Below, one piece after another: positions 3,121-45,316 of a stretch of 64,000 nucleotides of DNA. The position numbers and the translations under genes are program-made. How positions within the stretch are numbered: position 1 is the stretch's first letter; each line of letters starts with the position of its first letter. The stretch is from Trichodelitschia bisporula (taxonomy: Eukaryota), in NCBI GenBank assembly GCA_010356995.1, contig ML996699.1, forward strand, positions 62,001 through 126,000, written 5' to 3'. The notes beneath the pieces were generated by a model that saw only the letters and a list, made by a program, of their open reading frames with translations, had not been told where the DNA came from and made no database searches.

Positions 3121-4261
3121 TTACTCCCCCCTCCCAAGCAACCACTTAACCCCCTCAACCGTATCCCGTACAAAACCCCTACTCTTCTCCCAGTCAGGCG
3201 CAAAACTCCAGAACGAATGCGGCACACCCGGATACACGCGCAGCCTCGTCTTCCCTCCCGCCTCCTCACGCACCACCCGCTCATACACCAGCGCCTCATC
3301 CCTTAGCGGATCCTGTCCGCACACCTGGATAAACAGCGGCGGCAACCCACTTGTATCCAGCGGGTCAGCAAGCACATTAAATAGCGGATCCGTCGGCGGG
3401 GGGGCATAGGCAGCGGTGAACATCCGCACGGCTTTGATGCCCAAAATCGGCGCATCGGCGTTCTGCTCGTAGGACTTGATTTCGTCCGCATATCTGGGCG
3501 CGATGCCCTCCTGTCCCGGTGGCCCGAGGACGGGGATTAGCAGTGCGAAGCCCGTGACGGGTGGTATGAGCTTCTCATCCCGTGCCAGATGCGTCGTAAC
3601 TGCTGCGAGGTTGCCGCCGGCTGATGTCCCGCCGACGATAAAACCTTTGCTTGGATCAGTGCCGAGAGAGGCGGCGTTGGCCGCGGCCTGTTGGTTAGTG
3701 TCACGTTGCTCGCCCAGTGAGGACGGAGGACGTACCCATTTCAACGCATCCCACGCATCATTCACCGCGGCTGGAAACGGATGCTCAGGGGCAAGGCGGT
3801 AATCGACATTAACAACCACCGCCCCAACCTCACTCGCAAACAGCCGGCAGTTGAGCTCTTCGCTCTCCAACCCGCCGAGGCAGAACCCGCCTCCATGGTA
3901 AAACACAATGAGCGGCGCCCCGCCGGCAGGTGGCGTGGCAGGCGCATAGATGCGCAACGGGATGTGGTAGCCGTCGCGGGCCGGCGCCGTGGTGTCCCGC
4001 GTGGTGAAGGTAGACTCTGAGCCGGATTGCGAGGCGGTTAGGGCGCGCTTGCGGTCGGCGAGGAGTGACCGCATTGCCGGGACGTCGGAGCCGAAGTCGT
4101 CCAGGAATTTGACTGAGGGGCCAGCGGCGGCTAGCAACTACGCGTTGGGCGGGTTAGTTGGGCGTCAGGGCTGGCGGGGAGGCACGAGGAGAAGCGCTGG
4201 CACGCACCGCGGCAAAGTCCGGGTCAGGAGTGGCCAGACGGCCCGCGTTTTCGCGCGCCAT
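3121..4261 (-). CDS. Alpha/beta hydrolase, HSL (Abhydrolase_3) esterase/lipase family, 3 exons
   Basis: HGGGF oxyanion motif, VDYRLAPEHPFPAA, GTSAGG nucleophile elbow, DPLRDE and H(S)F. Introns 4138-4207 and 3688-3735 (GT-AG). Confidence 0.92.
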
Positions 4262-5372
4262 GAGTATAAGCGGCGGGGTTCGCGGGGTTCGAGGGCGTCG
4301 GGGGAGAGGGGCAGGTAGGGAATTGGCTTTTGGAGGCGGTTGCGGGGGGGCGCGGCGGCCTTTTTGAGGAGGCGGTCCATCTCGCGGTTATGCTTCCGGG
4401 AGTGAAGATGCGGGGTACGTAGCGGCGGGACGCCTTGTCGACGGGGTCAGGGGAGGGAGAGGGGAGTTAATATAGGTATGGTGCTCTTGGAGATGCGAGC
4501 CGAGGAGGCGGTGGGTGGGGCTTTCCGCGGGGTTCCTGTTGGTAGATGGGGGGGCTGGTAAGCGCGGTGGGATGGCGAGTGGTGGTGTTTTGGGGCATTG
4601 TTGTGGGAAGGTACGAGATTGTAAGTGGGAGGGACGGGCGGGACGAGACTCGCGTGTGGCACGTGGTGAAGGGCCGTGTGGGGACGCGGAACATGTCCTA
4701 TCACGATCAGCTGGAGGATGTTGTGCACAGCCTCATACGCGGCGGGGTTGGCCCTATGATGTCAAGGCGTGGCTGGTGGGGCGGGGAAGAGAGGGGCGGG
4801 TGGGATTCGACGATATCAATGATGGGCAGAGCTGCAATGTGATAGCTTTAGAGCTGCACGACGGTGACTGTCGAGCTGCTGTCGGGTGTTGTACCGTTCC
4901 GCCATATGCATTTGTAGCGCCCATATCTGCCTATCATGTCGAGTTCGGCTCCGGTATGCATTTTGGCTAGCGATGTGCAGACTCAGCCTCAGCAATCATC
5001 AATCACCATCATACCATTGCTCTATCTCTCTTTCAGCCCCCTCTCTGTCAGCGTCCAGGTTAATACAGCATCTGTTTGACAATCCCATGTCTCCGATCGG
5101 CTTTTAATTGGCTCCATCACGTCACCAGCCAACCACCTAAGGCTTCTCATCGCTCAGCTCACTGCTCAGCCACAGTTAGCTCCTTTCCACGGTGCAAGGT
5201 GGGGTTGCTGCCTTGGCCTTTAAACTCAACTCTCTTTCTCTCTTCACTTCTCTCCATCTCCATCTCCATCTCCATCTCCAGCTCCACCTCTCTCCTTTGC
5301 TTCGTTACTATCTCCCGTTTATCGATCGCTCACCAACACACCTAGCAACCCCGAAACCAAGTGTCGTTGAAG

Positions 5373-7726
5373 ATGGGTGTACGTATCCAGCCCTCCAATA
5401 ACCCCGCATCTACCATCCCACCTTCACCCCTCTCTTCTACCATCCACCACTAGTTCTAACCCTTCTCAGCTCGCATCCAAACTACAAGCTGCTGGTCCTC
5501 CTGGCGGCGGCTACCCTCCTGCTGCCGGCCAGCCTCCGCGTCCTGGTGGATATGTAAGTTCTCCTCAGCAGTCCTACTGCAAAGCACCCCGCAGTCAACA
5601 GCACCCGAATAGCGCCAAAATCAGACTGCTGACTCCCTCCGAATCAGCCCGGGCAGAATCAGTACCAAGCCTATCCTGGAGGCGTAAGTTCCACCCTTCC
5701 TTTCCCCTTGCTCCTTGCTTGCGCAATCCTCGTGCTCTCTTCCTGGCTCTCTTCATTGTCACTGGGCGCCTGGCTGCCGCGCCCCCGCCCCTCCAACCAC
5801 CCTGGCCCTTTCGTCATACTCTCCACCCAAAACTCTGTTGCGCTGCTACAACCACTCCACACCTCGAACACTTGTCCCCACAACGTGTCGCAATACCTTT
5901 GTCGCATTTTTTTTTAAATCAGCGTTCGTCGATTGTATCGTGTATCCTTCCGCCTAGGCCATGGCTGGCAGACATCCCTTCCCTCCTTTCGGTGCCAGCT
6001 ACGGCCAGTCGACCCCGCCTTATCCAAATGGCTCACCCTACCCGCCGCAGTCGTCTGCCTACCCCCCTTCCTCCGCCCCATACCAACAGAACCAATATGC
6101 TCCGACACCGCCAATGCAGCAGCAGCAGCAGCAGTACGGTCAAGGACAACAGTACGGCCAAGGATACAACCGGCCGCCTCCGCCGCCTCCCGGCCAGTAC
6201 TCCGGCTACCCATCGCAGCAGCAGCAACAACCCTACTCCCAGGCCCCGTACCAGCCCGGAGGACCCCAGGCCTACCAGGCCGACCCATACGGACATGTTC
6301 GTTTGATGGACATTTGGAATCCGTCGCTGTTCACCCGCTGACTCTTCCCGTCCCTAGGCCCCGCCCGCGCAGCCCGGATACCCTCAGCAGGGCGGCTACC
6401 CTCCCCAGGGCCAGCCCGGCTACGGTCAACAGGCGAGCCCCGCCCAGGCCGCTGGGTTCAAACAGGCCCTCCAAGCGTGCATCCGTGAGAACCGCCTCGA
6501 GATCTTCTACCCTCCCAACTCGCCCGTGCTCGATCAATTGGCGAACAAGGCCAGCCAGCAGATCAGCCAGCTGTGCCAGCGGTGGCGCATTCAGCCCGAG
6601 ATTGGCAATGATCTGGTCAAGTTGGGCCTGTACGATATTGTCGTTTACATCGGTGGGTTGCCGTTAATCCTCGCGCGAATGCCTCGGCTGACCTCTCTCC
6701 CTTTCCCCAGATGACAGCGGCTCTATGGCGTTTGAAGAGGGCGGCGAGCGCATCAAGGATCTTAAGTTGATCCTCGAGCGCGTCGCAGGCGCGGCGACTA
6801 TGTTCGACGAAGACGGTATCAGCCTGCGCTTCATGAACTCGCGCTACGACCCGGCGGTGCTCGACGGCATCCGCTCGGAGCAGCAGATTGACCAATTGAT
6901 GCAGAGCGTGCAGTTTAAGGGCCTGACGCCTATGGGTACCGAGCTGCGCTCCAAGGTCATTGACGGAATCGTGCTGCAGAAGGTCCGCGAGGGGCGGTAC
7001 CATAAGCCGACACTCATCATTACCGTCACTGATGGTCAGCCGGCTGGCGAGGCGTCCAACGCCGTCATCGAGACGATCAAGTACGCATCGCGGGAGGTCG
7101 GTCAGAAATCCGGCCCCGGCGGCATCGCGTTCCAGTTCGCGCAGGTGGGCAACGATCAGAAGGCGCGCGAGTTTCTGGCCACGCTGGACAATCACTCAGA
7201 GGTTGGCAATCTGGTGGACTGCACATCGAGTGAGTTGTCGCTGGCTGCTTAAACCCATGAACATCTATTAAACAATCCCACAGACTACGAGAACGAGTCG
7301 CAAGAAATGCAGAAGCTGGGCGTCGAGCTCACTCCCGACCTGTGGATCGTCAAGCTCCTCCTCGGCGCCATCGACCACTCGTACGACCGCAAGGACGAGA
7401 AGGGCGGTAACGCGCCCCAACCGGCTGGCGGGTACGGGCAGCCTCAGGGTTACGGCGCGCCGCCGGCGGGTCAGTACGGGCAGCCCCAGGGTTACGGGCA
7501 GCAGCCTCCTCAGGGCTATGGGCAGCAGCCGCCGCAGCCGGGTGGGTATCCTCCTCAGCAGGGAGGGTATCCGCCGCAGCAGCAGCAGCAGCAGCAGCAG
7601 CAGGGCTACGGTCGCGGGTATCCTCCGCAGGGTGGCCAGCCGGGCGGATATCCTCCGCAGCAGGGTGGATATCCCCCTCAGCAGGGAGGGTATCCGCCGC
7701 AGGGTGGCCAGCCGCCGCGGTATTAG
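5373..7726 (+). CDS. vWA-domain protein with G/P/Q/Y-rich low-complexity N- and C-termini (resembles fungal proteins annotated RfeF), about 7 exons
   Basis: Exons 5373-5378, 5470-5553, 5648-5683, 5958-6296, 6358-6652, 6711-7229 and 7284-7726 give MG-LASKL..., MIDAS motif [20 protein letters not shown] and FAQVGND, plus GGYPPQQ repeats. Confidence 0.85.
7577..7603 (+). repeat. (CAG)9 microsatellite encoding polyQ, within 21-nt GGYPPQQ repeats
   Basis: Read directly in the last exon of the vWA gene. Confidence 0.9.
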
Positions 7727-8656
7727 ATGTCGGTCGGCGGGGATGATACGTGATGGGTGTGTCGCTTTGGAGGAAGGGATGGCAAAATACGGACGTTGCT
7801 TCTATCGACGGTGGTAGTGGTAACGACACGGGTCTGTCTGCTTATGCAGTTTACGAATGGAGGTTAACTTGAGATTTCGGCCCATGAGGTTCAAGTTGAG
7901 ATTTCCAGCGCTTTTTTTGTCTGGCGTGACTGTGCTGCTGTGCTGCTGTGCTGCTGATGAAATGTGGATGTTTGTGGCCCATTATTGACGGGGGTCGCTT
8001 GGAGATTCCAACCCATGCCGTCGGTTAGCCTGCCGAAAAGGTACCGGAAAGCTTGGTGATGGAGGATTCTCTCCCTGTTGATGAATCTGTCGGTGTGTGT
8101 AAGGTTAACCCATCGCGAATGGGTGGGACAGGGCTTCCCAACCCATGCCGTCGATTAGCAGGCGAAAAAGCTTGATGGTGGTGGGCCACTCTCCAGGTTG
8201 CGGGGATTGTGAAATGAAGCACGCGAGCTCTAGCAAATCTCGAAGCGGGGAATTATATTGAGGTGCGCTAAGGAGATGAAGCGGTTATTGAGATGAGGTC
8301 AACAGTCGTTGAGAGATGAAGTCAAGTGCGCCGAGACATGGTGGCTTTTTCTTTTTCTTTCTTTTGGCGTGTGTGCGGGTGTGTGGGTCTGGCTTTTGGC
8401 TTTTTGCTTTTTGCGGCACCGCAAAGCAGGCGCAACGGGGTGGGCGTTAGAGTGAATAATTTCCGATTGGGTGTGCTGTGGACGTCATGCAATTTGGAGC
8501 GGGTACGGTACCGGTTACGTTAGATGGGCTGCGCAGGCGGAGATTGTCTCAGGAGAGCGAGAAGTATACATCCGTATCGCGGCTACGGTAAGTTGATGTC
8601 GCGGATGGTGTGAGAGATGCGACATTCGCATGTCCGCAGGTGTTGTCTGCGCGCTG

Positions 8657-8736
8657 TGCGGGCCTTGCACATCGGCGCTGCGGGCCTTGGATACCTGCGC
8701 TCCGGGCCTTGGATATCACTGTGCGGACCTTGGAAA
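8657..8736. repeat. Four degenerate copies of TGCGGGCCTTGG at 21-22 bp period
   Basis: Copies start at 8657, 8679, 8701 and 8722. Confidence 0.75.
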
Positions 8737-10178
8737 TATACACGACACATGTATGAACGCCACGCGCGCGGTGCGAGAAGGTTGTGGCACATCATTATGT
8801 TCCGTCTGCGTTTGGGGCTTGACATCATGGCAGCCCCCGCGACGAAAGCGCGATCTGTTCTGGCACATGGGTGTCTGCCCTAAAGTACGGGGCGGGAAGG
8901 CGGGGGTGGATACCACCAGCCTAGCCCCAGTCTGCAAGGCACGGGCGCCATTTTGGCGAAAAAAAAAGAGGCAGGGTTCAGCCTCGCAAAACCACCTCGC
9001 ATTTTCGCTTGTCTGCCAGTTTTCCAACACGGGGCGCTTTCCATGATAATGGCCTGCGAGCCTGCGCGGGCACGACGGGCTTGTTGGAATGAATCGTTGA
9101 TTCCCAACCGACGAACCAGCGGCGCGGTAACTGGCGAGCCAGCAAGATCCTCGCTTCACGCGACACACCCCTCTCCCGCAATCCTGCTTTCGTCGTACCA
9201 CATCCCGTGCCACATCTCAAACGCGCCTCCCGCTTGGCCCCGGCTGTTGCTGGCGGGATGGGGCTGTGGAACTCACTGCTCATGTTCCGGCTACCAACGT
9301 GTGATGGGTGGGCTAGGACTTTGTGGTAATTTGCACCGCCCGGTCCGCGACGCACGTACTATGACGTCGGCGGCAGCCGCGCGGGGCCAATCGGCGCTAG
9401 CGGGCGGGCGCCAATCGCGATCGTCTTGGCAGCCTGGCGAGAGACTGCATGGCAACGGTGGTGTTGGCAGGGCGCGAGTGGCTGGTGCGTTGCATGGCCA
9501 CAACCGGTTTTTGCAATGTCTGGCGGGCACGCGCGCGGTGGAGGGGCGGGTGATGTGGGTTGGGGTGTGGCGAGTGGGTGAGTTGGATACGGCGAGTGGC
9601 GGGTTGGGCTGCGGCTTACTGGTGAGAAGGTTTGGTGGTGTGATGTTTGCGTTTGCTGGTTGGTTGGTTGCTTGCTTGCTTTGTGACGGGACGGGGAAGG
9701 GGGTGTTGGATGGGAAGCTTGGTGCTGGGTCTGTCCACCCTGCTGGCGAACCTCCTTGCTGGTCTGCCCTCAGCCTGCTGGACCACTCGCTGTCCTGCCC
9801 TCTCATATGCTGTCGGCAGCCACGCCGTTTCGGGAGCACCCGACTGGGGCCGGGGGGCGTCGCGACCCCATGGGGACGGAGCAGGAGCGGGGGGTCGCTC
9901 GAAGATTCGTTGTGACGTAGCCTTGGCCTGTTGACATGGGCCAACAATCAGGAGGAAGGCATGGAAGGCAGGAGCGAGTGGGCGGGCTTGGGCGGGATTC
10001 AAATGCGAGCACTTTCCCCCCCGTGAAGTTTGCTTCTTGGATCATTTGACTGCCACGCTTGCGAAGGACGACCTGTGCTCTACTTTTCCACTCCTCCACT
10101 CTCTCCATTCCACTTCCACAACTCCAACTCTCCCCATCTTCACCACAACAGTCAAAGCTAGTATCACCCACCGCAGCC

Positions 10179-10780
10179 ATGATTGTCTCCCGCGCTTTGT
10201 CGTTCTTCCTCCGCTTCGCGCAGTTCGTCTGCGGCGCTGTAAGTCTTGCTTTTCCTCATCCCGTCACCGCAAACACTAACCGCCCCAGGTCGTCCTCGGC
10301 CTTGTCGCGCACTTCCTGCACCAGCACCACAAGACTCACGCCGGTCCCATCGGTCGCGAGATCTACACCGAAGTCGTCGCCGCGCTGTCCGTAGTCCTGA
10401 GCCTGATCTGGATGATCCCCTTCACCAGCACCTTCCTGCACTACACCACCGACTTCATCCTGAGCGCTGCGTGGTTCGCCGCCTTCGGCACGCTCGTCAA
10501 CTGGATCCACAAGGCTAACTGCGGTGGTGCTTTCCGTGAGTCCTGCCCTTGCTACCAGGGTTTGTTTGCTGTGAGTGTTTGCTAACGTGTGTGGCTAGAA
10601 TGGGGCGGCATTCACCGTGGCGGTTACTGCGGTCAGTGGAAGGCGACTGAGGCTTTCTCGTTCCTGAGCGCTATCTTCTGGCTCGCTTCTGCTGCCCTCG
10701 GCATTCACGTCGTTCACCGCGGCACTCGCGAGGCGACTACGTCGCGCGGCAGCCGCTGGAGCCGTCGCCATGCCGTCTAA
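10179..10780 (+). CDS. MARVEL-domain four-TM membrane protein, 3 exons
   Basis: MIVSRALSFFLRFAQFVCGA-VVLGL...DFILSAAWFAAFG...C...CGQWKATEAFSFLSAIFWLAS. Introns 10239-10288 and 10536-10598. Confidence 0.88.
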
Positions 10781-11665
10781 GCGTGTTCTCGTCTAGCAGC
10801 GATGCTGTCTAGATGTGGCTATCTGGTCGGCTAATGAGGGGAGGATGAGTATGCTCAAGGGTATTTTCCATGTTAACGTAATGCTGGAGCTGAGGCGCAT
10901 TGTCTGGGCTTTTCTGCGTGGTGTTATGGGAGATTCATACCCAAGGATTCACATAGCAATGCTTAACGCATCATAATTCTGCTTGCTTTTTCGTATCGTG
11001 CGTGATTTGATCACTTGGATTTTGAATGACCGGCGCTTAAGGTACAGGCGGCGGCATTCAATCTACTGTATCGGGTTGCGCTAATTGACACTACCGCAGG
11101 TGTATACTCGAGTGGCGTGTCAGTCTACCGTACAGGACACTCCAGCACGGGATGCTGCTGCCGCCTCTCACAATACTGTCCCAGGCTCGAGCTCCCCTCG
11201 ACCCTTACCGGTCCAGGGGTGGAGCTCCTGCCTGGAGCCGGTCACCACCAGTGCTCTTGCCTTAGGGCAGGAGAGTGGGTATTGGGGAACGTTGAGCTCC
11301 TCTCTCCTCCCACTCCTATTCTCCCCCTCGACTGAAGATCTTGAACCCCTAAACCTCTGCGGTATGGTGCGGCACCACCGCCGAGTCTCACACCCAGCTC
11401 CGCCACCCGCCGTCGAACGTGGCCGGTTCTACGCTCACTTGCATTCGGTGCTGTCAAAGCGTGGGCGTGCGCGGAGGAATGCGCTGGCAGCGGCGCTAGG
11501 TAATGGTTGATGCTATTGTACATGTCCGCTTGCTCTGATTTCATCTGCTGATCTTACTAATTACACATCCGGGCGCGGTTTATAGTCCATCAAAACCCAG
11601 TGGCTGGCGGAATACCGCAATGGCCCGCCCACCTATTAACTCAGTACAATCACTAATACGACGGC

Positions 11666-12759
11666 TTACCCAGCGGCACCAAGTGCGACCCACTGGGGAA
11701 ATTCCCTGTGGAAGTCACTCCCTATCGACCAGTTTCCAAGGTCGCAAATGTGTCTCTCGAAGGCGGGGTTGGGGTTGAACCGTCCGCGCGCCTTCCGCAT
11801 CCGCTTCGGCTTCTTCCGCTCCGAGTCCGTATCCTGCTTGGAGCCCGCCTTCGGTTCTAATTCCATCTCCTTAACAGAATTGGACGGCAGACGGCGGAAT
11901 AGGGACTTGCGTTGGTGGTCCCAGCTCGTGTATGGGTCGCCCCAATGAAGATATAGGCTTTCGAGGCGGGGCTGCACGAAACAACACCCGTAGCCGAAAG
12001 CCTCATCGGGGTTTCGTATGAACGCCTCGCGCAGCTCCGGCCTGCCGGTTAGAGGAGCAGCCTAAATGGAGCGCGACTTACCACGGTACGTAGTCCATCC
12101 AAAGCGGGTGCTCTACGGATAACTGTACCGGCAGCGGCCGCAGCCACTCCGGCATGGCATCGTAGCTCTTCTTCGTCGGCGCGATCAGCTACTTCGTGTA
12201 CAGAAACCAGATGTGTATAAACGCGATAGCTGGCGCCACCGAATGAAGAAAACTGACCAGGATCGCCCAGTGCGTTGCTGAATAGCTTCCACAGTGGGTG
12301 CGAGCGACGGGTCGTAAACATATCGCGGGCTGCTGTCGGATGCCAGTTCGGCTTGCAAACGCGCTCAAATTTCTCCAGCGACCTGCCCTTCGCCAACTTA
12401 CGGCGCTGGTCCGCTACGAGCTTGTAGATTTCACGGTCTATGCCGCAACGACTCACGTATGAGTTGTTGAGCGGTAGTGCCGTGGCGGACATTGCCTCTT
12501 GGGATTCATTCGCTTCGACGGCGGGCGGTGGCGCCATGGCAGGTAATGGGGACGGGCTCCTGGCAACGTAGGGGTCCTTGACTTTGTTCATCAAGCACCT
12601 GGGCAGATGGCGGTCCACGCCGAGCTTCCGGGAATAGTATTCTTGCAGATAGCGTTGGATCTCGCCGAGCCCCTGGTTCGCAGGCTCGGATACAGGGTCG
12701 CAGACGGGTGGGAGGGGCGCTGGGACTGCTGTCCGGCGACCGCTGCGTGTAACTGGCAT
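11666..12759 (-). pseudogene. DUF3425-type protein, copy 1 (disabled)
   Basis: Off-frame MPEWLRPLPVQLSVEHPLWMDYVPW-PELREAFI...FERHICDLGNWSIG..FPQW. Frameshift near 12240 and TAG replacing Trp at 12189-12191. Confidence 0.8.
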
Positions 12760-32842: not shown

Positions 32843-33448
32843 GGCTTATGAGCGGAAGGGTAGCGAGGAGGGCAGAAGAGGGTCAGGCGAGGGGTAAAGA
32901 AAGATATCTATGACTCGAATCAGTACCACGTAAGGCTGGCGAGGCAAATAAAGGGCGATTGCGTGATTTGGAGCGGCACGGCGCAAAGGGTGGCACTGAC
33001 CAAGTGTGGGGTTTCCGCCTCAAGAATGTCATCTCGACAGAATGATACAAAGAACGAAGAATACAAACTGTGTCCCCGGCTATCGGATGCAGCGTGGGGT
33101 TGACGCCTTGCTTCTGTGTAGTTGGGCGATTGGCGTGGTGTCTATGCAGTTGAATGAACTCTGTGAGCGGTGCAGACTGCGGACTGCCTTAACAATGGAC
33201 GTTGAACGGTGAAAAAAACAATTTCCTCACCAAAGGAGTTCAATGATAGCCGATCGGTCGAGATCTTCCTATCTTAATTCAAGCCTCGTCCGGTCACCGC
33301 CTCAAACTACCGCCAACCTACTGACGCACGTCACACGTGACAGCCACGGTCAAGGATTTTGTGACCCACCATCGCCGCCAACCTTACTCCGTGCCGACGA
33401 CATCATCACCGACCCCAACCTCACCTCAACACCCACATCCATGTTGCC

Positions 33449-36244
33449 ATGAGCGGACGTGTGCTCTTTGCACGCTTGGTGCCGCTTGCACGCCGTCCAC
33501 TCCTCCACAATGTCCGTCCCTATCCCCGCCGCAACCTGCCTGCCGGCATAAACTCGCTGCACCATGTCCCCGCCGTCCGCCCCATCTCCTTCGTCCGCGT
33601 GCTGCCTAAGCTCTTCACCAAACTCGCGACCCTTGGTGCAGCTGCCGGCGGTGCTACAGTAGCTGGATTGGTATACATTCAGAACCAGGCGAGTGCTGCA
33701 GGAACGTACGTCTCCGGAATCTTCAGCCAGGCCAAAGATGGAGCTTGGACCCTCGGTGGGGGCGCTTACGAGGGCGCAACCGATACACTTGATCGGATGA
33801 AGCGGGGCTGGGAGACTACAAGGGAGAAGGTCGAGGTGCCCGAATGGCTGTCCGGCATCCTCGCCGGCAAGGAGGGCGGCGACGGAAACAGCGGGAACGG
33901 ACAAGGCAAAGGACCGGAGCCGAAGCATAGTGCATCTGGCGTTGCTGCTGGCGGTGCAGCTGCTGCAGCGTTTGGATTTGGCTCCAGCGATGATAACAAG
34001 GACGAAGAGAAGGCCGCCCGGGACGACCAGATGATGCTGCTCACGAAGAAGATGATCCACATCCGGACCCTGTTGCAGTCGGTTGGTAAGTCGGACTCGC
34101 TCACACTCCCGTCTATCGTTGTCATTGGGTCCCAGTCGTCAGGGAAGAGTTCCGTGCTCGAGGCTATCGTCGGACACGAGTTCCTCCCAAAGGGCAACAA
34201 CATGGTCACCCGCCGTCCCATTGAGCTGACACTCGTCAACACCCCCGACGCAAAGGCCGAGTACGGGGAGTTCCCGGCGCTCGGCCTCGGCAAGATATCC
34301 GACTTTTCTTCGATCCAAAAGACGCTCACCGACCTCAATCTTGCCGTTCCCGCTGAGGAGTGCGTCTCAGACGATCCCATCCAGCTGCGTATCTACTCAC
34401 CTAACGTTCCCGACCTCTCCCTGATCGACCTTCCCGGCTACATCCAGGTGACGAGCCTCGATCAGCCACCGGAGCTCAAAGAGAAGATTGCTGAGCTGTG
34501 CGACAAGTACATCCAGCCGCCGAATGTGATCCTCGCCATCTCCGCCGCGGACGTTGACCTGGCCAACTCGACTGCGCTCCGGGCCAGCAGAGCTGTGGAC
34601 CCCCGCGGTGAGCGGACTATTGGAGTCATCACCAAGATGGATCTCGTTGATCCTGACCGTGGCTACAGTATGCTGCACGACTCCAAGTATTCTCTGCGAT
34701 TGGGATACGTTGGCGTCGTTGCACGCGTTCCGCCGTCAACCACGACCACCAAACTGTTCAACCGCGGCAACTCCAACATCTCTCAGGCCGTCATGAGGAA
34801 CGAGGCCGCCTTTTTCACCGCGCACCCGCAAGAATTTGGGCCGGAAGCGCACGTGGAAGTCGGCATGGGCAGTCTCCGGAAAAAGCTTATGCACGTCCTG
34901 GAGCAGACCATGGCGAGCAGCCTCAAGTCTACCACGGAGGTTATCCACCAAGAGCTCGCGGAGGCTACATACGAGTTTAAGGTGCAGTACAACGACCGCC
35001 CGCTCAGTGCTGAGACATACCTCGCCGAGAGCCTTGACGCTTTCAAGCACTCTTTCCGCGGCTTTGCCGAGACCTTCGGCCGCAGCCAGGTTCGCGAGCT
35101 CATCAAGCAAGAACTCGACCAGCAGGTCCTGAACCTACTTGCCCAGCGGTACTGGAACAAGCCGATTGAGGACCTCTTTCCGACGGCGCTGGATACGGAT
35201 TCGCTTACCGACCTGCCCAAGGCAGATCCCGAGCACCCCCTCTGGCACCTCAAGCTCGACGCCTCGAGCGCTGCTCTGACGAAGCTGGGCATCGGGCGTC
35301 TCGCGACCTCGGTGGTTGCAAACGCCCTGCAGACGCACATAGATCACCTCATCCAAGGTTCTACCTTTGCGAACCACCCCTTCGGCCGCAAGGCCATCGC
35401 CGATGCTTCAACAACCATCCTGCGCGACTTGTCTTACGACATTAGCGACGAGCTGGAAATCTGCATCAAGCCGTACAAGTACCGCATTGAGCTGGATGAC
35501 AACGAGTGGGCGAAGGGCCGTGATAACATTACCAGCGTGCTCAAGGAGGAGCTCCGGGTGTGCGAAGCAGCTGTCAAGCACGTCGAGACCGAGGTCGGCG
35601 GCCGCAAGAAGCTGCGTGACGTCATGGGTTTCATCGATCGCGTGCGCAATGGGCAAGTTGTTCTTGAGGGCGATGGCGTTGGCGGTGCTGGGGGCTTCAG
35701 TGCTGCTCTTCTGCGAAAAGGTACGTCGATATATCGCACATCATGTCTCATTGCTAACAACTAAGGCCGCGAAGCCGTCTTTCTGCGCGACCGTTCCGGC
35801 ATTCTGAAGATGCGCATGATGGCCGTGCGATCGAAGCAATGCGCGAACAAGGCCAACAAATACTTCTGCCCGGAAGTATTCCTCGACGCGGTAGCAGATA
35901 AGCTGACGACCACGGCCGACCTATTCCTGGATGCCGAGTTGCTCTCCAAGTTTTACTACAGCGTAAGTCATTCCCATTTTCGCTTCCAGGTGAAGCTGAC
36001 ATTGTAGTTTCCCCGTGAACTGGATGCGCGCCTGGGTCACGGGCTGTCCAAGGCCGAGATCGAGCGCTTCGCCCGCGAGGACCCGAAGATCCGGCGGCAT
36101 CTGGATGTTGTAAAGCGCAAGGAGCTTTTGGAATACGTGCTCAAAGAGATAGACTCATTGCGGCAACTGGAGGCGCGGGAGAAGCGCTCCGCGCGGGGTT
36201 CGCGCCCTGACCGTGAGAAGAGGAGAGGTTGGGGGTTGTTTTAG
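33449..36244 (+). CDS. MGM1: Mitochondrial dynamin-like GTPase Mgm1/Msp1, 3 exons
   Basis: Basic presequence and two hydrophobic segments, GSQSSGKSS, VTRRP, DLPG, TKMD and C-terminal FAREDPKIRRHL. Introns 35721-35765 and 35963-36008. Confidence 0.95.
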
Positions 36245-36581
36245 ACGAACGGTTTGGGGCTTATTCTTCTGGCGTTTCTGCGCTTTGCTGCTAACGAAGA
36301 TACCACGCGTATGCTGTTGGGATGCTGAGTAGGCTGCATTGCTCTCATTGTACTCTAACGATCATGACCTAGAGTCCCATGGACTGGCTGCAACGTTGAC
36401 GAATTTATATTTATACAACCCGACGTTCACCACCCATGTTTCCCAACGCCATATTTGCGGTGGAGTGTACCAGCGACGGCGCTTCGGGACTCCCCCCCCC
36501 CCCCATCCATCACCACTCCCACATACCGCCATATACAACTCCAATCCTCATCCTCATATTGTCGCAGAAGGTACGAGAGTG

Positions 36582-36587
36582 TAATTA
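36582..36587 (+). promoter_or_regulatory. TATA-like element at -29 to -24 of the 5S gene
   Basis: TAATTA lies 29-24 nt upstream of 36611, the position described for dispersed Neurospora 5S genes. Confidence 0.55.
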
Positions 36588-36610
36588 AATTCATGGAATG
36601 TTTGTCTAGC

Positions 36611-36629
36611 ACATACGGCCATAGGTCGC
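36611..36629 (+). rRNA. 5S rRNA gene, 5' fragment (nt 1-19), interrupted
   Basis: ACATACGGCCATAGGTCGC matches the Pezizomycotina 5S start. It pairs with GCTGTATGT (42364-42372, helix I) and GCGAACC (42313-42319, helix II with bulged A). Confidence 0.85.
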
Positions 36630-37829
36630 AGACATATACCTGTGTCCGCGGGAAAATAGCCGCCAAATCCGGCGGTTTGTAACGGCGTTTCTGGCGTCAG
36701 ATTTCCCCAATGCAGGCTTCCAAGAAATCGGGCGCTTAGAGTGTTCAGTATCCCTGTTGATGGCTAACAAATTCCAGCGGACGAATTATATGAATTAGAA
36801 AATCTAAAAAGCGGCTTACCTCGCATCGAGAATCAGCCCTCCGCCACTTTTTCTAGCTTCCGCCTCGTGCCCCTCTTGGGTCTCTCCATCGCCGCCGCCT
36901 CAATGCGTCCTCCCGCATGCCGTTTTTTCGTCTCGCCCACCCCTTCGTCTCGCCCGCCCCTTCGTCTTGCCCACTTCTTCATGTCGTTTTACCCCTTGCC
37001 TCGCCTACCTTTTCGCCTGATCTCGCCCTAGCAGCCACGCTGCCCGAGCACAGACTGCCTATTTGGCTCGCGTGGGGCATTGAGGCGGGCCTGTCGGGCG
37101 CGCTGATGGACGAGGACGGGGCGTACGAGGGCCCGTTGCTGGGCCTTTAAGTTGGTTGGCGACCATATATGCCGCACGGGTAGCATACGTATGTGGCGCC
37201 AAATATTGGGAGCGCGAATTTCGTACGGCGTGCGCGGGAGGAGCCGTTTCGGGGGGGGGGGGCAGCGTGCTGGTCAGTAGGGAGGTGGCGTTGGTGATTA
37301 GGCTGGCTTACGAGGGGGAGCCAGTACTATGGACGAAGCCGCGGTGGGTCAGGGTTAGGACGTGGGTGAGTATAGGTTCTGCGGGCGCCTAGACGAGAAG
37401 TGGGAGTAGGGAGGTGCGAGGGTCACGAACTGGCGGAGGTTTCGGCGGTGCTGTGGGGGGGTCGGGAACTGCGGGTAGTTTTGCTTGCGACTACCGGATG
37501 AGTTGCTGCAGCTGCAGCTGGTAGTAAACTGGTAGTAGTAGAGGTTATCCGTTGGGCCGCAGGAGGGGCTGTGCGGGAGAGGTTGCTAGAAGGGTGGCTG
37601 CGTGTAGGTGCGGGGGCGGTAGGGTAGTTACCGGTGAAAGTTTGCACACCGGGAGCGATACGCTGATATGTAAGGCTTTGCGCGGCGTGACTTGCTGCGG
37701 GTAGGCCTAGGTGATTTCCGATAGCCCATCCGACGAGGGGAGAGCTGGGCGCGGTATATTCGTAAACGAAGAGGTGGTAGAATAGGATACTTGCGAGGCC
37801 GGGAATGCGATGGATACGGGTCACGCGGG

Positions 37830-37919
37830 GCCGCTTGATGGACGGGAGGAGCCGCTTGATGGACGGGAGGAGCCGCTTGATGGATGGGAGGAGCCGCTTG
37901 ATGGACGGGAGGAGCCGCT
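37830..37919. repeat. Tandem repeat, 4.3 x 21 bp (GCCGCTTGATGGACGGGAGGA)
   Basis: Units start at 37830, 37851, 37872 (one C>T) and 37893, with a partial unit at 37914. Confidence 0.92.
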
Positions 37920-38862
37920 AGGCTAGTTCGAGGGGAAGCTAGGCGCCGTCTATTACTTCAACCTTTTGCCAGTGTTGGTCTGTTGACGACAAGTTGTGGA
38001 GTTGTGAATGGATAATCGTTTCTCCTCGGTGGGGATGAGGCCTTTCCTTCGCAGTTGGAATGGCCGCACTCTCCCGCGGGCTCAATTGTTCCATGGTACT
38101 GTATGTTTCTCGAGTCCCGCGCTGATGACACGATACAACATGACTGTTACGATGTCGTCCGCTCAACTCCAATCGAGCCTTTAATCCAGCACCAGGACGC
38201 TTGCTAACACCCATCTCATACATTACCCGGCCACCTCTTCCACAGAATCAACTACGTATCTTGTTAAAATGAAGTGTGAGCATGACTGAGTTGCTTAATT
38301 AACTAGCAGTAGGAAGTGAGCTGACTATATACCTCGCCAGGAGACGATCCCTGTCTCCTGGCTCCGCTCCAGCCACCTCAGATTACCGCCACAAATTCAA
38401 CATATCTCCTCCATCAGAACAGTCTGTATGCTCCGTCTGTCCCTCACTACGCTGCCAAACTCCCACCCAAAACCATGGCCGCTACTCCGGCATCCTCCTG
38501 AGCCTGTTTATGCTCGAGCCCTGATCAGTCTCGATATCCCGTACAGCAGCTACGACGCGGGCATAGACGACGCAAGCAGCGTGGGCGGTGCAACATGGAT
38601 GAACAACCGGGTATGTCCTCCAGCGAAGTCTTCGTCTATGAACTGATCAGTTGGTAGGAGAATTTGATGCCCCGTGGCATGTGGCTGTGTCTCCTCCAAT
38701 CTCGTCCTCCCCCTCCGCGCTCGACAGTTCACAGCCTCATTCTTGGCATTCTGCCCTGCAGTTGAGTTCAGACGGAAGCCCCAAAGTCTCGCCTTTAACC
38801 TCGAGTTCCGGTCCTGCATTTTCAGAAGTCCTCAATTTTTGACTAGAATCATTATTTCCAAG

Positions 38863-41214
38863 ATGCCACCTGCAAAGCGGATCCGGACACAGGGCCACTT
38901 CCGTGCCTCTTCCAGCCTTTCGCGACCCTCCTCACCTATTGCCGGCAACACTCCCGCGCCTGCCCCCGCGAGCAGTGTCAGCCAGACCTCATCTTTACCA
39001 CTTGCCCTTCAGAGAGCCATCAATAGAGAGCCAGTCCACCGACTTCGTCAGGAAGACTATACAATAGGATGGATTTGCGCTCTTGAAATTGAACTTGCAG
39101 CAACCCAGGAGATGCTCGACGAAGAGCACCAACCTCTCCCCCAGGACGCATCCGATCCCAATAGCTACACGCTCGGCCGCGTTGGCGAACACAATACGGT
39201 CATCATGGTCTTGGGGCTGACGGGCACAAACTCGGCGGCCTCGGCGGTTGCTCAAATGAAGTCAACTTTCACTTCGGTTCAATTCGGCGTCTTGGTCGGC
39301 ATCGGAGGCGGTGTGCCGAGCGCAAAAGCCGACATCCGGCTTGGGGACGTTGTTGTTTGCCAGCCGTCCAAGGATTGTGGTGGAGTGATTCAGTACGACT
39401 TGGGCAAGACCAGGCCTGACGGGGTTGAACGGACCGGATTTCTGAACGCGCCCCCAAAGGCCTTGCTGAGCGCGTTGAAGAGTCTGAAGGCAAGCCATCT
39501 GAAAGGGAGAGTTGGTTTCCTAAATCACCTTGCAAAGCTCAGCAGCCAGTCTCTTTTCGCTCGCGACAAGGCCGGGCCAGATGTCCTATACGACCCTGCG
39601 TACAACCATTAGGAGGAAGAGGAAAACTGTAACAATTGTAAGAAAGAATATAGTGTGCGGCGCCAGACGCGTGGTGAACATGTCTTGGTTCACTATGGTA
39701 CGATCGCTTCGGGGAATCAAGCCATGCGCGATGCCAAGGAACGAGACAAAGTCAGTACGAAACTCGGAGGCGTCCTGTGCTTCGAAATGGAAGCCGCCGG
39801 GGTGATGAACGATTTTCCATGTCTGCCTGTGCGGGGAATCTGCGACTACTCGGACTCTCACAAGAACAAGAGCTGGCAGCCATTCGCGGCGGGGACGGCG
39901 GCAGCGTACGCTAAAGAGCCTTTGTTGTTGCTTTCGCCGGCCAAAGTCGAGATACCAGAAGATCCACCCGTGCCGGCAATGCTCCTAAACTTGCCCAGGG
40001 CTGCAGACACACCATCCAACCCATACGAGCGGAAAAAAGCGCCCTGCCTGATTCGTACCCGGGTCGAACTTCTCAACGAGATCTACGCCTGGGCTTACGG
40101 GGAGAACTCGCTAAATATTTTTTGGTTGAGTGGTTTAGCTGGCACCGGCAAGTCCACCGTGGCTCAAACTGTGGCCGCCGAATGTTTTCAGAAGGGAAGG
40201 CTTGGAGCCAGCTTCTTCTTCTCGCGAAGTGGCGCAGATGTCCGGCATGCCGGCAAGTTCGTGACAAACATCGCAGCGCAACTTACAGACAATGTGTCGG
40301 GGGCAAAGCGGTCTCTCTACAAGGCTCTGAAGGAGCGAGACACCATCACTGAAGAGTCTATCCGCAGTCAGTGGCATCATCTCATCCTCGGTCCCATGTC
40401 GAAGCTCGAAGGCGACACCTCTGCTCCATACATCCTAGTAATCGATGCCCTGGACGAATGCGAGGGCGAGGACGACATAGGGGAAATTCTGGATCTCTTT
40501 CGGTTGCTGAAGAAAACCCGGCTCCGGCTGTTTTTAACGAGTAGACCTGAAGTACCAATCCGGTCTCAGTTATCCGAAATGCCAACAAGCGAGCACCTGG
40601 ACTTGGTGCTCCACAGCATTGAGAAGTCGACTGTTGACAATGATATCCGCTTCTTTCTACGACACGAGCTCGAACGGCTAGCCCGGGGACGCTCTTTTGA
40701 CAAAGATTGGCCAGGCGAGCAAGCCATCGACTCTCTTGTCCGGAACGCCAGTGGTCTGTTCATCTGGGCTGAAACCGCATGCCGCTTTGTTAAACAAGGA
40801 AGAACATTGGCTCCCAAGAAACTAAGCTTGATCCTCAGTCAAAGCCACAGCACTGTGAAAGGGCCAGAGAAGCATCTCGACGAAATCTACGCGACTGTTC
40901 TTCGCCAATCCCTTACCAACTATGAAGGCGATGATGCAGAGGAGGTGCGATCCACATTGAAGGAAGTGCTTGGAGGCATCGTGATCCTGTTCAATTCACT
41001 TTCCATCCCGTCCTTGAGGAGGCTACTCGGCCAGAATGTGGGACAGGCACTGGATGATCTTCAAGCCATTTTGGACATTCCAAAGGAACCAGGTGACGTA
41101 CTCCGTTTACATCACCCTTCGTTTCGTGACTTCCTTCTCAATCCACGGAGAAGCGTGAAAACAGGTATCCTATTCTCGGTTCGACGCCACTCCTGTTTCA
41201 TATTTTCTATATAA
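38863..41214 (+). pseudogene. NLR-like PNP_UDP phosphorylase + NACHT gene; one in-frame TAG, no C-terminal repeat domain
   Basis: DYTIGWICAL, LVGIGGGVP..DIRLGDVVV, HYGTIASGN, CFEMEAAG and RGICDYSDSHKNK. Walker A GLAGTGKS, Walker B LVIDALDEC, HPSFRDFL. ORFs 38674-39612 and 39655-41214 share one frame, with TAG at 39610-39612. Confidence 0.88.
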
Positions 41215-41445
41215 TACGAGTTGCTCATATGGTACTGTCAGATTGAGCAATGACGGTATACACCCAGTTACTACAGGATGAAGAACTAGAATCTATTAAA
41301 AGGTGATGCGGGATCAACGGAAACATCACTGCATTACGAGTTAGACCGAAGGTCTGTCCATGAACAAGTTGCTTGATTGCCAAAGAAGTGGGGACCCCGA
41401 GTCTACTTATACTCGAGCCTTTTGGCTGAAACTGGGTGAGGCTAA

Positions 41446-41700
41446 ATACAGCCACCGCATTCCAGCAGCGGCTGTCGGCTCGGGCGGGATTGGCTGTTTG
41501 ACCGGAAGGCTACCGGCGAGACGGCCGTTGATATGAGAGTTATGCGCGTGGTTAAGGATTTGGTGGGCGAGCTGGCGCACGGGGGGTGCGTGGACGAGTT
41601 TATGCACGACCAGCTGGTGGTGTTTCAAACCGTTGCGCGCGGACGGAGCGAGGCCTCGGCGGAGGTTAAGAGTCTACACAGACGGCGAAGTGGGTTGGGT
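41446..41700 (+). pseudogene. C-terminal fragment of an RNA 3'-terminal phosphate cyclase-like gene
   Basis: HSSSGCRLGRDWLFD...ELAHGGCVDEFMHDQLVVFQ..ARGRS...SLH, then frameshifted TAKWV. No N-terminal part. Recognised by motif memory only. Confidence 0.65.
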
Positions 41701-41853
41701 GGGAGGAGGCGGGAGTGGATTTTGAGGACAATGCATGCGAGGGCGCCGGGTTGGGTTAGTGAGCGGGGAGGTCAAGAAAGGCGTCATGGAGGAGCTAGAG
41801 GAGGAGCTGCGAAGGGCGGGTATGTGAGGATCAGGTATGGGGCAGAAGGATAG

Positions 41854-42222
41854 TCGAGAGATATGAGTGCCTAAGGCAAACGGACAGTGAGCCTTGGCAA
41901 ACGTAGTTAGATGTAGGAGAGAGGGAGCTTAGCTTCCTCTCTCGCGGATCCAACCAGACAACTTTGACTTGCCCACCTTTACCAAACCTGTGACTCTCAA
42001 CAACAGCGCAATAATTTCATAACCCGCGGAGCTTCGACACTCGAACGCCCGAGGGAATAACCATACGAATCCTTGTTGAGAGTCACAGGTTTGGTAAAGG
42101 TGGGCAAGTCAAAGTTGTCTGGTTGGATCCGCGAGAGAGGAAGCTAAGCTCCCTCTCTCCTACATCTAACTACGTTTGCCAAGGCTCACTGTCCGTTTGC
42201 CTTAGGCACTCATATCTCTCGA
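41854..42222. repeat. Perfect 150-bp inverted repeat (41854-42003 / 42073-42222) with 69-bp spacer
   Basis: The arms are exact reverse complements when compared base by base. Confidence 0.95.
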
Positions 42223-42273
42223 TAAAAACCGCGAAAGGGGTTAACCTAATCGGGATTCACAGACCATAGTCTC

Positions 42274-42372
42274 TGAGAACACCAGTCCCCGTCTGCTCAC
42301 TGAAGTTAAACAGCGAACCGGTTGATTAGTAGTTGCGTGGCTGACCAGCAGCGAATCCCAACTGCTGTATGT
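42274..42372 (+). rRNA. 5S rRNA gene, 3' fragment (nt 20-118)
   Basis: GAGAAC..CCCGTCTGCTC..AGTTAA..TTAGTAGTTGCGTGGCTGACCAGCAGCGAATCCCAACTGCTGTATGT, with compensatory pairs in helices III-V. Confidence 0.92.
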
Positions 42373-42387
42373 TTTTGCGTTTTTTTT
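42372..42387 (+). terminator. Pol III oligo-T terminator of the 5S gene
   Basis: T5, GCG, then T8 directly after the 5S 3' end. Confidence 0.85.
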
Positions 42388-42917
42388 GCTTCTATCTCTG
42401 GTGGATCCGAGATAGCTCGCGTTGTACCGTCTGTTGCAAGTAGCAGGTCGTCCGTCTTATATTGAACCTCACCTGGCAATGGAGTGCAAAAGGTATGCGC
42501 ATCCGCAGACATTATTCGCAAGAAGGCTAGACCAGGATGCTGCAGGCAGGCCGATCCCTGCCCGTCGGCGCCGCCGGCATTTCAATTTTCACCACCCACG
42601 ACGCGGCTCATCTCGTACATGAATTACGCAGCAGAATCTAGAACTAGCCTTTCAGTCATGAGCCTCCTCCTCCTTCAACCCCCCGCTCATCCCCGCTCAC
42701 CCCGCCGGACCCGCTTCCGTCGCTCGTGACTCGCGGCGGGGCCCGCCTCGGTACAGTACTTAGGCGGGGCCCGGGCGATCGTGATGGCGGGCGGCGGGGG
42801 GAGGGGTATGTGTGACGTCGGCGATATAAAGTGGCAACGACACGACGAAATTTTATCCGACCTCGACACTTCTGCACTTTACTTGCGCTGTACGGTCTAA
42901 AGCATTAGGAGGACAGA

Positions 42918-43708
42918 ATGGGCGATAATAGAACTGTGTTTGCTTCGGCGCGGAGCATCCTGGTTATCAACCCGAATTCGAATACGCAGATGACGCTTGC
43001 GCTGAGGCCTGTTGTTGATGCGTTGGGGTTTGAGGGGGTGAGTGGTGGCCTGTGGGAGGGATGTGGTATACGGTCTTGCTGACTTTGTAGACGCGTTACA
43101 CTTTCTTCACTGCGCCGGATGGGCCGAGTAGTATCAACAATGAGGACGACGCGGAGGAATCGACGAGGCATGCGCTGCCTGCGCTCGAGCCCCTCCTGTC
43201 CAAGCACGACGGCTTCCTCGTCGCTTGTTTCTCCGCCCATCCCCTCGTTCCGGCACTCAAAAAGCACGCCGAAGCCGGAGGGGCGGGGAAGCCGGTCACG
43301 GGAATTATGGAGGCGAGCACGGCGGCGGCGTTGCAGCTGACGGGCGTGGGGAAGAGGTGGGGCGTGGTGACGACGGGGAAGGTGTGGGAGGAGGTGTTGA
43401 CGGAGGGGATTGGGCGGTTTGTGGGGGCGCGGCCGGGGAACTTTGTGGGCGTAGAGAGTACGGGGCTTAGTGCGGGGGAGTTGCATGATAGGAGTCCCGA
43501 GGAGGTGAGGAGGCGGATGGGGGAGGCGACGGCGCGGTTGTTGGATAGAGGGGGGGTGGAGGTTGTGGTGCTGGGGTGTGCGGGGATGGCGGGGCTGGGG
43601 GAGATTGTGAGGGAGGTTGCGGGGGGGAGGGGGGAGAGGGTTAGGGTTGTGGATGGGGTGCAGGCGGGGGTGGGGTGGGTTGAGGGGGCTGTGAGGGCGG
43701 GGTGGTAG
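42918..43708 (+). CDS. Asp/Glu/hydantoin racemase family protein (Dcg1-like), 2 exons
   Basis: ILVINPNSNTQMT, GPSSINN, FLVACFSAHPLV, PVTGIMEAS, LGCAGM and VVDGV. Intron 43038-43090. Confidence 0.9.
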
Positions 43709-43928
43709 GAGAGGGGTATGGGTGGAAAGGCTTTGTGTTTCTCATGTGGGCTTGCCGGGACTGATTTTGTACGGAGATCACGGGTAGGAGTTGAAAAGGA
43801 ATAGTGATTGAGCATTAAATCTGTCCAACCCAACCTGCTTATCAACCAAGGCCTTGCTCTAGAATCCTTTACATCCCTCACCCTCCGTATTCAGCGTTGA
43901 ATCCCCGAATACAACCCTCCAACACCTC

Positions 43929-44495
43929 CTATTCCCAAGTAGTCATCAACCCGACTTCTTGCACCAACAACCGCCCCTGCCCCACACTCCCCAGAATCTC
44001 AACCTCCATCCCCTTATCCCCCGACCCAGCGATAATATCCACATCCACCGCCGTCCGAAACGCACCCTCCCCCACACCGCTCAAATCCAACCGATGTATC
44101 TAATCCCCACATATTAGCCGCGTCCAAATACCCGATGAAACTCAAAAACGCACCGTCCGCCGCCCCGCGACATTAATCCTCAGCCCGGTGCTTATCTTCT
44201 GGCCCTCCTGGTGCCCGCTCACGGCTAGTTGCTTGATGTGCAAGGTGCGCCCGGGGGCGATGGCGAGGCCGAGCACGTAAGTGCAGGAGTGCCGGGTGCC
44301 GGGCGTGAATTCGGCCCAGGGGGCGAGGGTTAGGCTGGTGGGGCGTTGGAGGAGGGGGGTGGGGGATGGGGACTTGCAGCCGGCGCCGGCCATTGTGAGG
44401 AGGGTTATGTTGGCTTGTTGGAGGCTGGTTGAGGGGGAGGGGAGGGGGGAGCAGAAGGCGAGAGGGAGGAGGAGGGCGAGGAAGGCGGTGTACAT
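43929..44495 (-). CDS. Small secreted protein, possibly DUF4360-like, 2 exons
   Basis: Signal peptide MYTAFLALLLPLAFC, then ITLLTMAGAGC and RHSC pattern. Intron 44100-44153 joins in frame to IHRLDLSG...TTWE*. Confidence 0.7.
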
Positions 44496-45316
44496 CTTGC
44501 TAGAGGGGATTGTGTTGTTGTTGGAGGTGATGTGAGGTCTTGCTGGAGGTGATGAACGGCGAGGCTGTGGATGAGGCAAGGCTGTTGATGAGGGAATATT
44601 GGGTGAGGGAAGGCTGAAAGGGTATATACGCCCACACTGAGAGGTCGCGATATCCGCTTCCTCAGGGTGCAAAACTCCACACTAGCCATGTGCGTGAATA
44701 GAACCATCTCAAACTGGACCCATCCTACGAGGACAGAAACGCCCAAGCTCCGATCCCGTTAGCGTACCCTCTCAACAACGCCGGGGCCGCAACCAAAACC
44801 AAACCCACGATGCTCTTCAGCCTTGTCCGCGGAAGCACACACCAGGACCGGGCGAAAACTACCCCAAATAGGTCCCAATCTCCCTTAATTGCACCTAAAT
44901 AAAGACCCCTAATTACCTCAGAGCATCTGCCATTTTAGCGCAGGATTGGACACCCAGGGTTAAATGTGCGGTGGGGTGTTAATTGCTTCGCGCCGAGACC
45001 GGGGGCAAGGAGGGCACGGTTACATGTCCGGGGAAGGGGGTGGATTGAGTGCGATCTGAATTCTGGGGAACAGATGTGCGATGCTCAATCCTTCGGAGTA
45101 TCTTGAAATAGGTATGTACAAAATATAGATGTCTGCGCCGAAGCATATGAAACCGAGGCTGGATCTACTGTGTTCTTTACAATCTATCCCAACTGCGCCG
45201 TAGAAATGCAAACAGAGACAAGGAGACGCCGCGATCGGCGGGATTAAAGAGACGGAAGGAAATCATTAAGAGAGTGTATACGAGACAGATGCAGAGGTAC
45301 TCTTCACCAGGGGAAT

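Follow-up and report, generated by a model that had tools for sequence, protein, structure and literature searches.

In a window of 64,000 nucleotides (nt) of the genome of the dung fungus Trichodelitschia bisporula (Dothideomycetes; assembly GCA_010356995.1, contig ML996699.1, positions 62,001 to 126,000, forward strand), a 5S ribosomal RNA (rRNA) gene is interrupted by an insert of 5.6 kb. The two stretches at 36611-36632 and 42275-42372 of this window are the halves of a single 118-nt 5S gene. The insert between them (36633-42274, 5,642 bp) is a mosaic of broken genes, nested repeats and a hairpin. Our preferred interpretation, to which we tentatively assign a probability of about 45%, is the decayed remnant of a Starship-type insertion that targeted the 5S gene in a similar way to the element Voyager and is now devoid of its captain, i.e. 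the recombinase gene. A Starship-like mode of insertion is plausible from two features of the locus, namely the site of insertion and two insert ends that resemble the target.

The break point was determined with contigs of two public runs, X1 and X2, which originate from one sample of one study and may be the source of the assembly itself (0.69 of the sampled words of 35000-44000 are present in them). Contigs were placed on 34000-45000 in the identity classes 99+, 95-99 and 90-95%, with 3,138 contigs from X1 and 2,040 from X2. Contigs of intact 5S paralogues, with alignments starting from 36605 on the left side, extend over the 21-28 nt that end at 36627-36632, leave out 5644-5651 bases and resume at 42275-42280. 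Where additional letters occur between the two sides they amount to 7 or 3, and the total length stays at 118-119 nt. One paralogue form leads from 36630 straight to 42275 with 2 letters fitting either side, and the commonest forms continue through 36632. Since the paralogues read on through 36630-36632, the 5' piece of the gene comprises 22 nt (36611-36632, + strand). The dinucleotide GA flanks the insert on both sides (36631-32 and 42275-76), so that the boundaries of the insert can slide by up to 2 nt and the 3' part (42275-42372, + strand) covers nt 21 or 23 to 118. The summed depth of the joints is about 4,190 in X1, compared to approximately 200 for the single-copy flanks (400 in X2), equivalent to some twenty intact 5S copies that possess this 5' end. 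An earlier sequence-only reading of the window had already proposed one 118-nt gene in two halves, and the bridging paralogue contigs confirm this. Its break at nt 19/20 has to be moved to a position after nt 22, and the single duplicated C it described is replaced by GA.

The 3' half was recognized by the Rfam scan as the only family match in the 64-kb window (RF00001, 42255-42373, + strand, 57.1 bits compared to a gathering score of 38). This match spans the whole model on contiguous sequence, yet the pairs of helix I are marked as non-standard, and the full-model alignment took the right end of the insert as a stand-in for the 5' end of the gene. The contiguous 119 nt without any join reach a minimum free energy (MFE) of -27.4 kcal/mol, with helix I absent. 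With the corrected join of 22 and 96 nt the canonical fold is obtained at -32.8 kcal/mol, and all nine pairs of helix I are formed between the 5' strand and 42364-42372, in line with the earlier claim of a helix I closed across the gap. The join initially proposed (36611-36629 with 42274-42372, likewise 118 nt) adopts the three-helix 5S shape from MFE alone at -37.1 kcal/mol. Complementarity to the last 9 nt equal to that of the helix I 5' strand is found in 61 of the 127,982 9-mers of the window (both strands), and 1 of 1500 random 22-mers forms at least 7 helix I pairs. This helix I test took the place of two cruder statistics, whole-molecule MFE and the number of cross pairs formed by the 5' piece, neither of which rose above random 22-mers (p about 0.24). 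On its own, the 22-nt piece gave no 5S match in 36400-36900 at a relaxed Rfam threshold, where two chance-level matches were the only ones returned. A break at CCATAG instead (14 and 104 nt) was rejected, as its fold is poorer (-31.3 kcal/mol) and the paralogue joints contradict it.

Further signals of the split gene were read directly from the sequence. A TATA-like box, TAATTAAA, is located at 36582-36589 (+ strand), 29 to 22 nt before the 5S start; fungal 5S genes use such a box. Behind 42372 a run of five T and then one of eight T follow (42373-42390, + strand), which are terminator-like. Both elements had been noted in the earlier reading. The 5' piece contains the 5' strand of helix I, the loop A motif CCATAG and the 5' strand of helix II. 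As claimed before, CCATAG is present near each junction, at 36619-36624 in the gene and at 42264-42269 in the insert.

The second line of evidence is given by the ends of the insert. Its boundaries were set beforehand from the paralogue joints, independently of any similarity between the ends and the 5S gene, and the p values refer to random stretches of the window (n=200,000 for the test of the joined ends). The right end (42263-42276, + strand), which includes CCATAG, 5 nt and the shared GA, matches nt 9-22 of the 5S gene in 11 of 14 positions (p=1.2e-3). The left end (36633-36643, + strand) resembles nt 23-32; with the GA included (13 nt), its alignment to nt 21-32 shows 9 matches, 3 mismatches and 1 gap (p=2.7e-3, or 0.016 when GA is left out). 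For both ends joined and compared to nt 9-32, a value of p=2e-4 was obtained. The outer arms of the locus thus represent the true target, and the inner arms are look-alikes arranged around the shared GA. Such a layout corresponds to that of attL and attR sites, as expected if a target recombines with a look-alike site borne on an element. Exact matches in metagenome contigs numbered 0 both for a 27-nt piece of the left end and for 25 nt spanning the right junction.

Comparable behavior is known from bacterial integrative elements, in which tyrosine integrases recombine attP with attB in tRNA genes. The insert shares with these elements a conserved small RNA gene as target and ends that mimic the target around a short core. 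It differs in its eukaryotic host and in that its look-alike restores no working gene, the 5' strand of helix I being absent at the right junction. A comparison of bacterial tRNA-gene elements with Starships is also drawn in PMC9156397. Voyager is reported to integrate in 5S rDNA 20 bp from the 5' start, with a repeat of 12 bp (PMC9156397, including Table S14). The break described here, after nt 20-22 when the sliding GA is considered, coincides with this integration site and bears out the earlier proposal of a 5S-targeting place. According to PMC11162782, 5S accounts for 23% of the 222 curated Starship sites, with no fewer than five positions used within the gene, and the direct repeats measure 6-16 bp. 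A Starship is described there as a DUF3435 captain at the 5' end followed by cargo, with direct repeats and sometimes terminal inverted repeats (TIRs), at low copy number.

The locus has no captain gene. Within the insert region (36430-42456), a Pfam search of 47 reading frames of at least 45 amino acids (aa) at E values up to 1 revealed no recombinase, transposase or reverse transcriptase; apart from one host-gene fragment described below, weak chance-level matches were the only result. Likewise, neither DUF3435 nor a recombinase or transposase was matched at E up to 0.01 by the two long reading frames of the NLR region. Outside the insert, 93 reading frames of at least 150 aa in the window contained no recombinase or transposase at E up to 1e-5. 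The insert can therefore still be called captainless, as was stated before.

The cargo consists of two truncated genes. The larger one (38998-41169, + strand) is a PNP_UDP-NACHT pseudogene of NLR type with matches to NPHP3_N (100.7 bits) and NACHT (33.7 bits). Its best protein hits are from T. bisporula, and with P0001 of this species, which carries PF01048, the PNP_UDP region, it shares 90% identity over residues 10-738. The reading frame is interrupted by an in-frame TAG at 39610-39612, and the homology to the paralogue ends at residue 738 of 923; nothing follows, so that the C-terminal repeats are missing. A fungal NLR combines effector, NACHT and repeats in one open frame, and here a stop codon and a missing 3' end were found instead. 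The PNP_UDP-NACHT gene of the sequence-only reading thus holds as NLR-type cargo and has to be reclassified as a pseudogene. Four gene families are associated with Starships, the NLRs among them (PMC9156397). Six close paralogues are annotated (P0001, P0002, P0003, P0005, P0243 and P0244, 79-90% identity), and the depth of the runs suggests many more unannotated copies. The NACHT family of T. bisporula comprises near-alike members with differing N- and C-terminal parts (PNP_UDP, WD40), which we take to recall the NWD/HET-E family of Podospora.

The second remnant (41461-41791, + strand) is the 3' fragment of a pseudogene for RNA 3'-terminal phosphate cyclase (RTC), distributed over three frames with two frameshifts. 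It corresponds to residues 251-360 of 373 (tblastn), the last third of the protein, and its first piece shows 75% identity. The best match is the T. bisporula RTC P0123 (E 2e-25), in agreement with the host-gene fragment noted earlier. The NLR gene cut at its 3' end and the RTC gene cut at its 5' end are about 300 bp apart, and a short high-copy repeat (41319-41464) occupies the last 146 bp of this gap; the RTC fragment begins where the repeat ends. An internal deletion is suggested by this arrangement, in which two truncated genes face each other across a short gap with a high-copy repeat as its last part.

The remaining parts of the insert are mostly repetitive. Copy numbers were estimated from the depth of the contigs relative to the flanks, a measure that gives no indication whether other copies share the ends of this insert. 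Summed depth over 36569-41706 ranges from 3,700 to 72,000 in X1. The insert starts with a non-coding stretch without protein family match (36633-38256), whose depth of 3,700-12,400 in X1 corresponds to about 18-60 copy-equivalents; its leftmost 300 bp reach about 40-48 times and the next 700 bp about 18-27 times flank depth. Two tandem repeats are found in this part, a 17-nt unit in three copies (36926-36977) and a 21-nt unit in five copies (37806-37931). The latter yields a repeated heptapeptide in a 164-aa reading frame on the reverse strand, which has no family match. The NLR region follows with approximately 50-110 copy-equivalents. In comparison, 41465-42222 is about single-copy, including 41707-42073. 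At the right side, the bin that contains the 5S half (42074-42440) has a depth of 30,378, about 150 times that of the flanks.

Between the non-coding stretch and the NLR pseudogene a 141-bp element with TG...CA ends is nested (38262-38402, + strand). It is flanked by TATCT on both sides (38257-61 and 38403-07), and in further copies of the sequence around it 146 bases are missing at this position, with 5 letters fitting either side. Its bin shows the highest depth of the locus (72,180 in X1, hundreds of copy-equivalents). With these ends, the 5-bp duplication and the many copies, the element is probably a solo long terminal repeat (LTR), although a full-length parent was not seen. The short high-copy repeat at 41319-41464 likewise reaches hundreds of copy-equivalents (48,242 in X1 for the bin 41340-41706). 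Loose contig ends are found at 41319, 41334 and 41464, and the window's own single-copy contig 41116-41354 indicates that 41170-41318 is not highly repeated. A weak forward alignment connects the two high-copy repeats of 141 and 146 bp (score 43; null 21.5, standard deviation 4.3, maximum 47).

Near the right end a perfect foldback was detected (41854-42222), with two arms of 150 nt each (41854-42003 and 42073-42222, 100% complementary) and a spacer of 69 nt. Contigs of the runs covering 41456-42003 and 41391-42003 match without any difference and terminate exactly where the first arm reaches the spacer. The foldback is about single-copy, and candidate origins are a scar of foldback repair, a foldback element or an effect of assembly. 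The last part of the insert, 52 nt, ends with CCATAG and 5 nt. A BLASTN comparison of the insert with the rest of the window gave no further copy of any part. Indices of repeat-induced point mutation are unremarkable for the insert; of the 40 differences listed, 24 consist of T or A in the window and C or G in the other copies and 6 of the opposite, a mild C-to-T bias of this copy.

One contig of X2 (depth 445) is 5S-like up to 42309, continues with 20 other 5S-like letters and then with 41236 onward. Together with the high depth of 41319-41464 and with a 5S bin at about 150 times flank depth compared to some twenty intact joints, this gives a hint of a possible 5S-related family of short interspersed nuclear elements (SINEs) that would have a 5S-like head and a body similar to 41236-41464.

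Taken as the remnant of a Starship-type insertion, the locus could have arisen as follows. A mobile element of the Starship kind, that is of the tyrosine-recombinase type, would have integrated site-specifically after nt 22 of the 5S gene. A site on the element resembling the target would have recombined with the 5S, leaving the attL/attR-like ends. We infer that the element was once larger and carried a captain, and that internal deletions and nested insertions of repeats shrank it to the 5.6 kb of broken cargo. In its present form the insert encodes nothing able to move it, and this 5S copy is inactivated. Renewed movement would require a related captain, encoded at another place in the genome, by which both ends are still recognized.

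Several observations weigh against a Starship origin. Exact repetition is limited to 2 nt, with incomplete matching in the longer arms (9/12 and 11/14); compared to the published 6-16 bp, the locus offers an exact GA and imperfect arms of 12-14 nt that resemble 5S with p about 1e-3 each. The imperfect TIRs on which the earlier Starship proposal was partly based are at chance level: p values are 0.04 (20 nt) and 0.13 (30 nt) with the ends used there and above 0.7 with the corrected ends, so this claim had to be abandoned, although TIRs are not required for a Starship. The Voyager repeat matches nt 22-33 of the 5S gene in 8 of 12 positions as reverse complement and equally nt 32-43 in 8 of 12 as printed; the published position of 20 bp favors the mapping to nt 22-33. 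Matches to DUF3435, recombinases or transposases are zero in the scans of both the insert and the 64-kb window. With 5.6 kb the insert is also much shorter than any Starship reported from starfish, of which the smallest has 15,020 bp (PMC11162782). Multicopy DNA makes up 36633-41464, where the depth reaches 18-360 times the flank value, in contrast to the low copy number described for Starships. Degraded Starship regions without captain are known, with a working rule of three or more hits to DUF3723, FRE, PLP and NLR in the absence of DUF3435 (PMC9156397). Against this rule, one of the four families is present in the insert, as the NLR pseudogene. Finally, none of the Starship-like candidate regions in Table S13 of PMC9156397 is from T. 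bisporula.

With these points considered, the precise insertion in 5S, the missing recombinase and the NLR cargo of the earlier proposal remain in favor of a Starship, whereas its TIR basis does not. That proposal had further assumed a miniature element mobilizable in trans. As the cargo is broken and interrupted by other repeats, an internally deleted remnant fits better. It is improbable that the insert is a living non-autonomous Starship moved between 5S genes by a captain encoded elsewhere, even though both ends are kept and mimic the target and the terminal regions are multicopy. Such mobility has a precedent in the laboratory, where a captain acts in trans on a frameshifted mini-element (PMC10104507, Urquhart et al. 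2023), and three DUF3435 homologues of T. bisporula appear in the tree of Fig. S4 in PMC9156397. The laboratory construct, miniHephaestus, is similar to the insert in its small size and in having both flanks, and it was moved by a captain supplied in trans; it is, however, artificial and has a TTAC(N7)A target. Just as doubtful is the broader proposal that the insert belongs to a natural family of captainless Starship derivatives, similar to miniature inverted-repeat transposable elements (MITEs), spread among 5S genes by Voyager-like captains. The multicopy terminal regions and the excess of 5S-like over intact 5S sequences would then, with equally small likelihood, represent further members. 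In the open-access literature searched, no description of natural captainless miniature Starships was found.

Explanations without any Starship were weighed as well. A double-strand break near nt 22 could have been repaired with DNA copied or captured at another locus: the right end would invade an ectopic 5S-like sequence, copy the neighborhood upstream of it and join the left side via the 2-nt GA microhomology. We regard this course of events as rather unlikely. It would account for the exact sharing of just 2 nt at the junctions, for a diverged 5S-like stretch at the right end that Rfam aligned as 5' end, as a donor copy would be, and for a mosaic composition as found in templated repair, in which cut genes and repeats are combined and a perfect foldback lies close to one of the ends. 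5S-like sequence is highly repeated (30,378 compared to about 200), and the X2 contig that joins a 5S-like stretch to 41236 onward indicates that 5S-like sequences beside parts of the insert exist elsewhere. However, the left end resembles displaced 5S too, which end joining does not predict, the break coincides with the site of a known recombinase family, and from the single-copy state of 41465-42222 no close donor copy survives. Quite unlikely is the arrival in the 5S gene, by chance or by an unknown preference, of DNA that has nothing to do with Starships, either an uncharacterized repeat with many copies or several common transposable elements nested in each other. The depth of 36633-41464 with its many contigs of 90-100% identity in both runs points in this direction, as do the solo-LTR-like element and the short high-copy repeat inside and a leftmost segment that is commoner than the one next to it. 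Part of the high depth is, however, accounted for by the NLR paralogue family. Neither a transposase nor a reverse transcriptase nor any other protein of such elements was found in the frames scanned, the ends do not resemble LTRs, the similarity between the TIRs stays at chance level and the target mimicry at both ends is left unexplained. To our knowledge, a 2-nt GA repeat matches no DDE superfamily; the target repeat of the Dada DNA transposons differs from that of the insert as well. Dada elements (PMC3706591) share with the insert the specific insertion into multicopy small RNA genes. They have a DDE transposase and are described from animals, whereas the insert has no transposase. A misjoin of repeats within the 5S gene during assembly is highly improbable. 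The insert is rich in repeats and contains a perfect 150-nt inverted repeat, the runs contain just 0.69 of the sampled words, and among the contigs listed none spans either junction. Random misjoining would, however, not be expected to give 5S halves that are exactly complementary in extent (22 + 96 = 118 nt), and several single-copy contigs belonging to the window itself match the interior of the insert at every position (37076-37232, 41116-41354 and 41456-42003).

The remnant of a Starship-type insertion can also be compared with the published 5S-targeting Starship families Voyager, Enterprise and Arwing (Gluck-Thaler et al. 2022, PMC9156397; Gluck-Thaler and Vogan 2024, PMC11162782). Similar to these, the insert lies in a dispersed 5S gene of a Dothideomycete, about 20 nt from its 5' end, and fragments it; it contains cargo of NLR type, and its GA with the imperfect arms may correspond to their short direct repeats taken from 5S. 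In contrast, the published elements measure 15-700 kb and possess a captain and repeats of 6-16 bp, whereas the insert has 5.6 kb, no DUF3435 and an exact repeat of 2 nt; Voyager is listed with a TIR of 24, and the insert has no convincing TIR and a multicopy interior. Degraded or "Derelict" Starship regions (PMC9156397) are similarly captainless, with decayed Starship-type cargo in place. They are large and contain at least three associated genes. The insert has one, but it has kept both ends and the exact target junction. In Table S14 of the same paper, the Fusarium oxysporum element Starship-1_Foxy_Fol4287 is given with the target repeat CCATAG, which is identical to the loop A motif of 5S; the element is not flagged there as 5S-targeting.

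The locus is flanked by MGM1 (33365-35764, with Dynamin_N and LIS_MGM1) and by a DCG1-like Asp/Glu racemase gene (43091-43705), the two neighbors named before, and the remaining window contains ordinary genes. About 105 nt upstream of the 5S start lies a run of 13 C (36490-36505), where long single-copy contigs of X1 and X2 end (36504).

5S genes are a favored landing site of Starships, yet their decayed leftovers are hardly described. If the interpretation as a remnant is true, the insert would be the smallest footprint so far, with both ends and the exact junction kept and the captain and most of the cargo gone. From the target-like arms, about 24 nt surrounding GA could then be proposed as the site at which a 5S-targeting captain recombines. 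For the greater part of the insert the genome contains tens of copies, a feature that is unusual for Starships and was not known when the sequence-only reading was made. Without further copies in other 5S genes the insert would be an ordinary dead remnant, useful mainly as a caution for the annotation of 5S genes and NLRs. If such copies exist, it would be the first natural non-autonomous derivative of a Starship.

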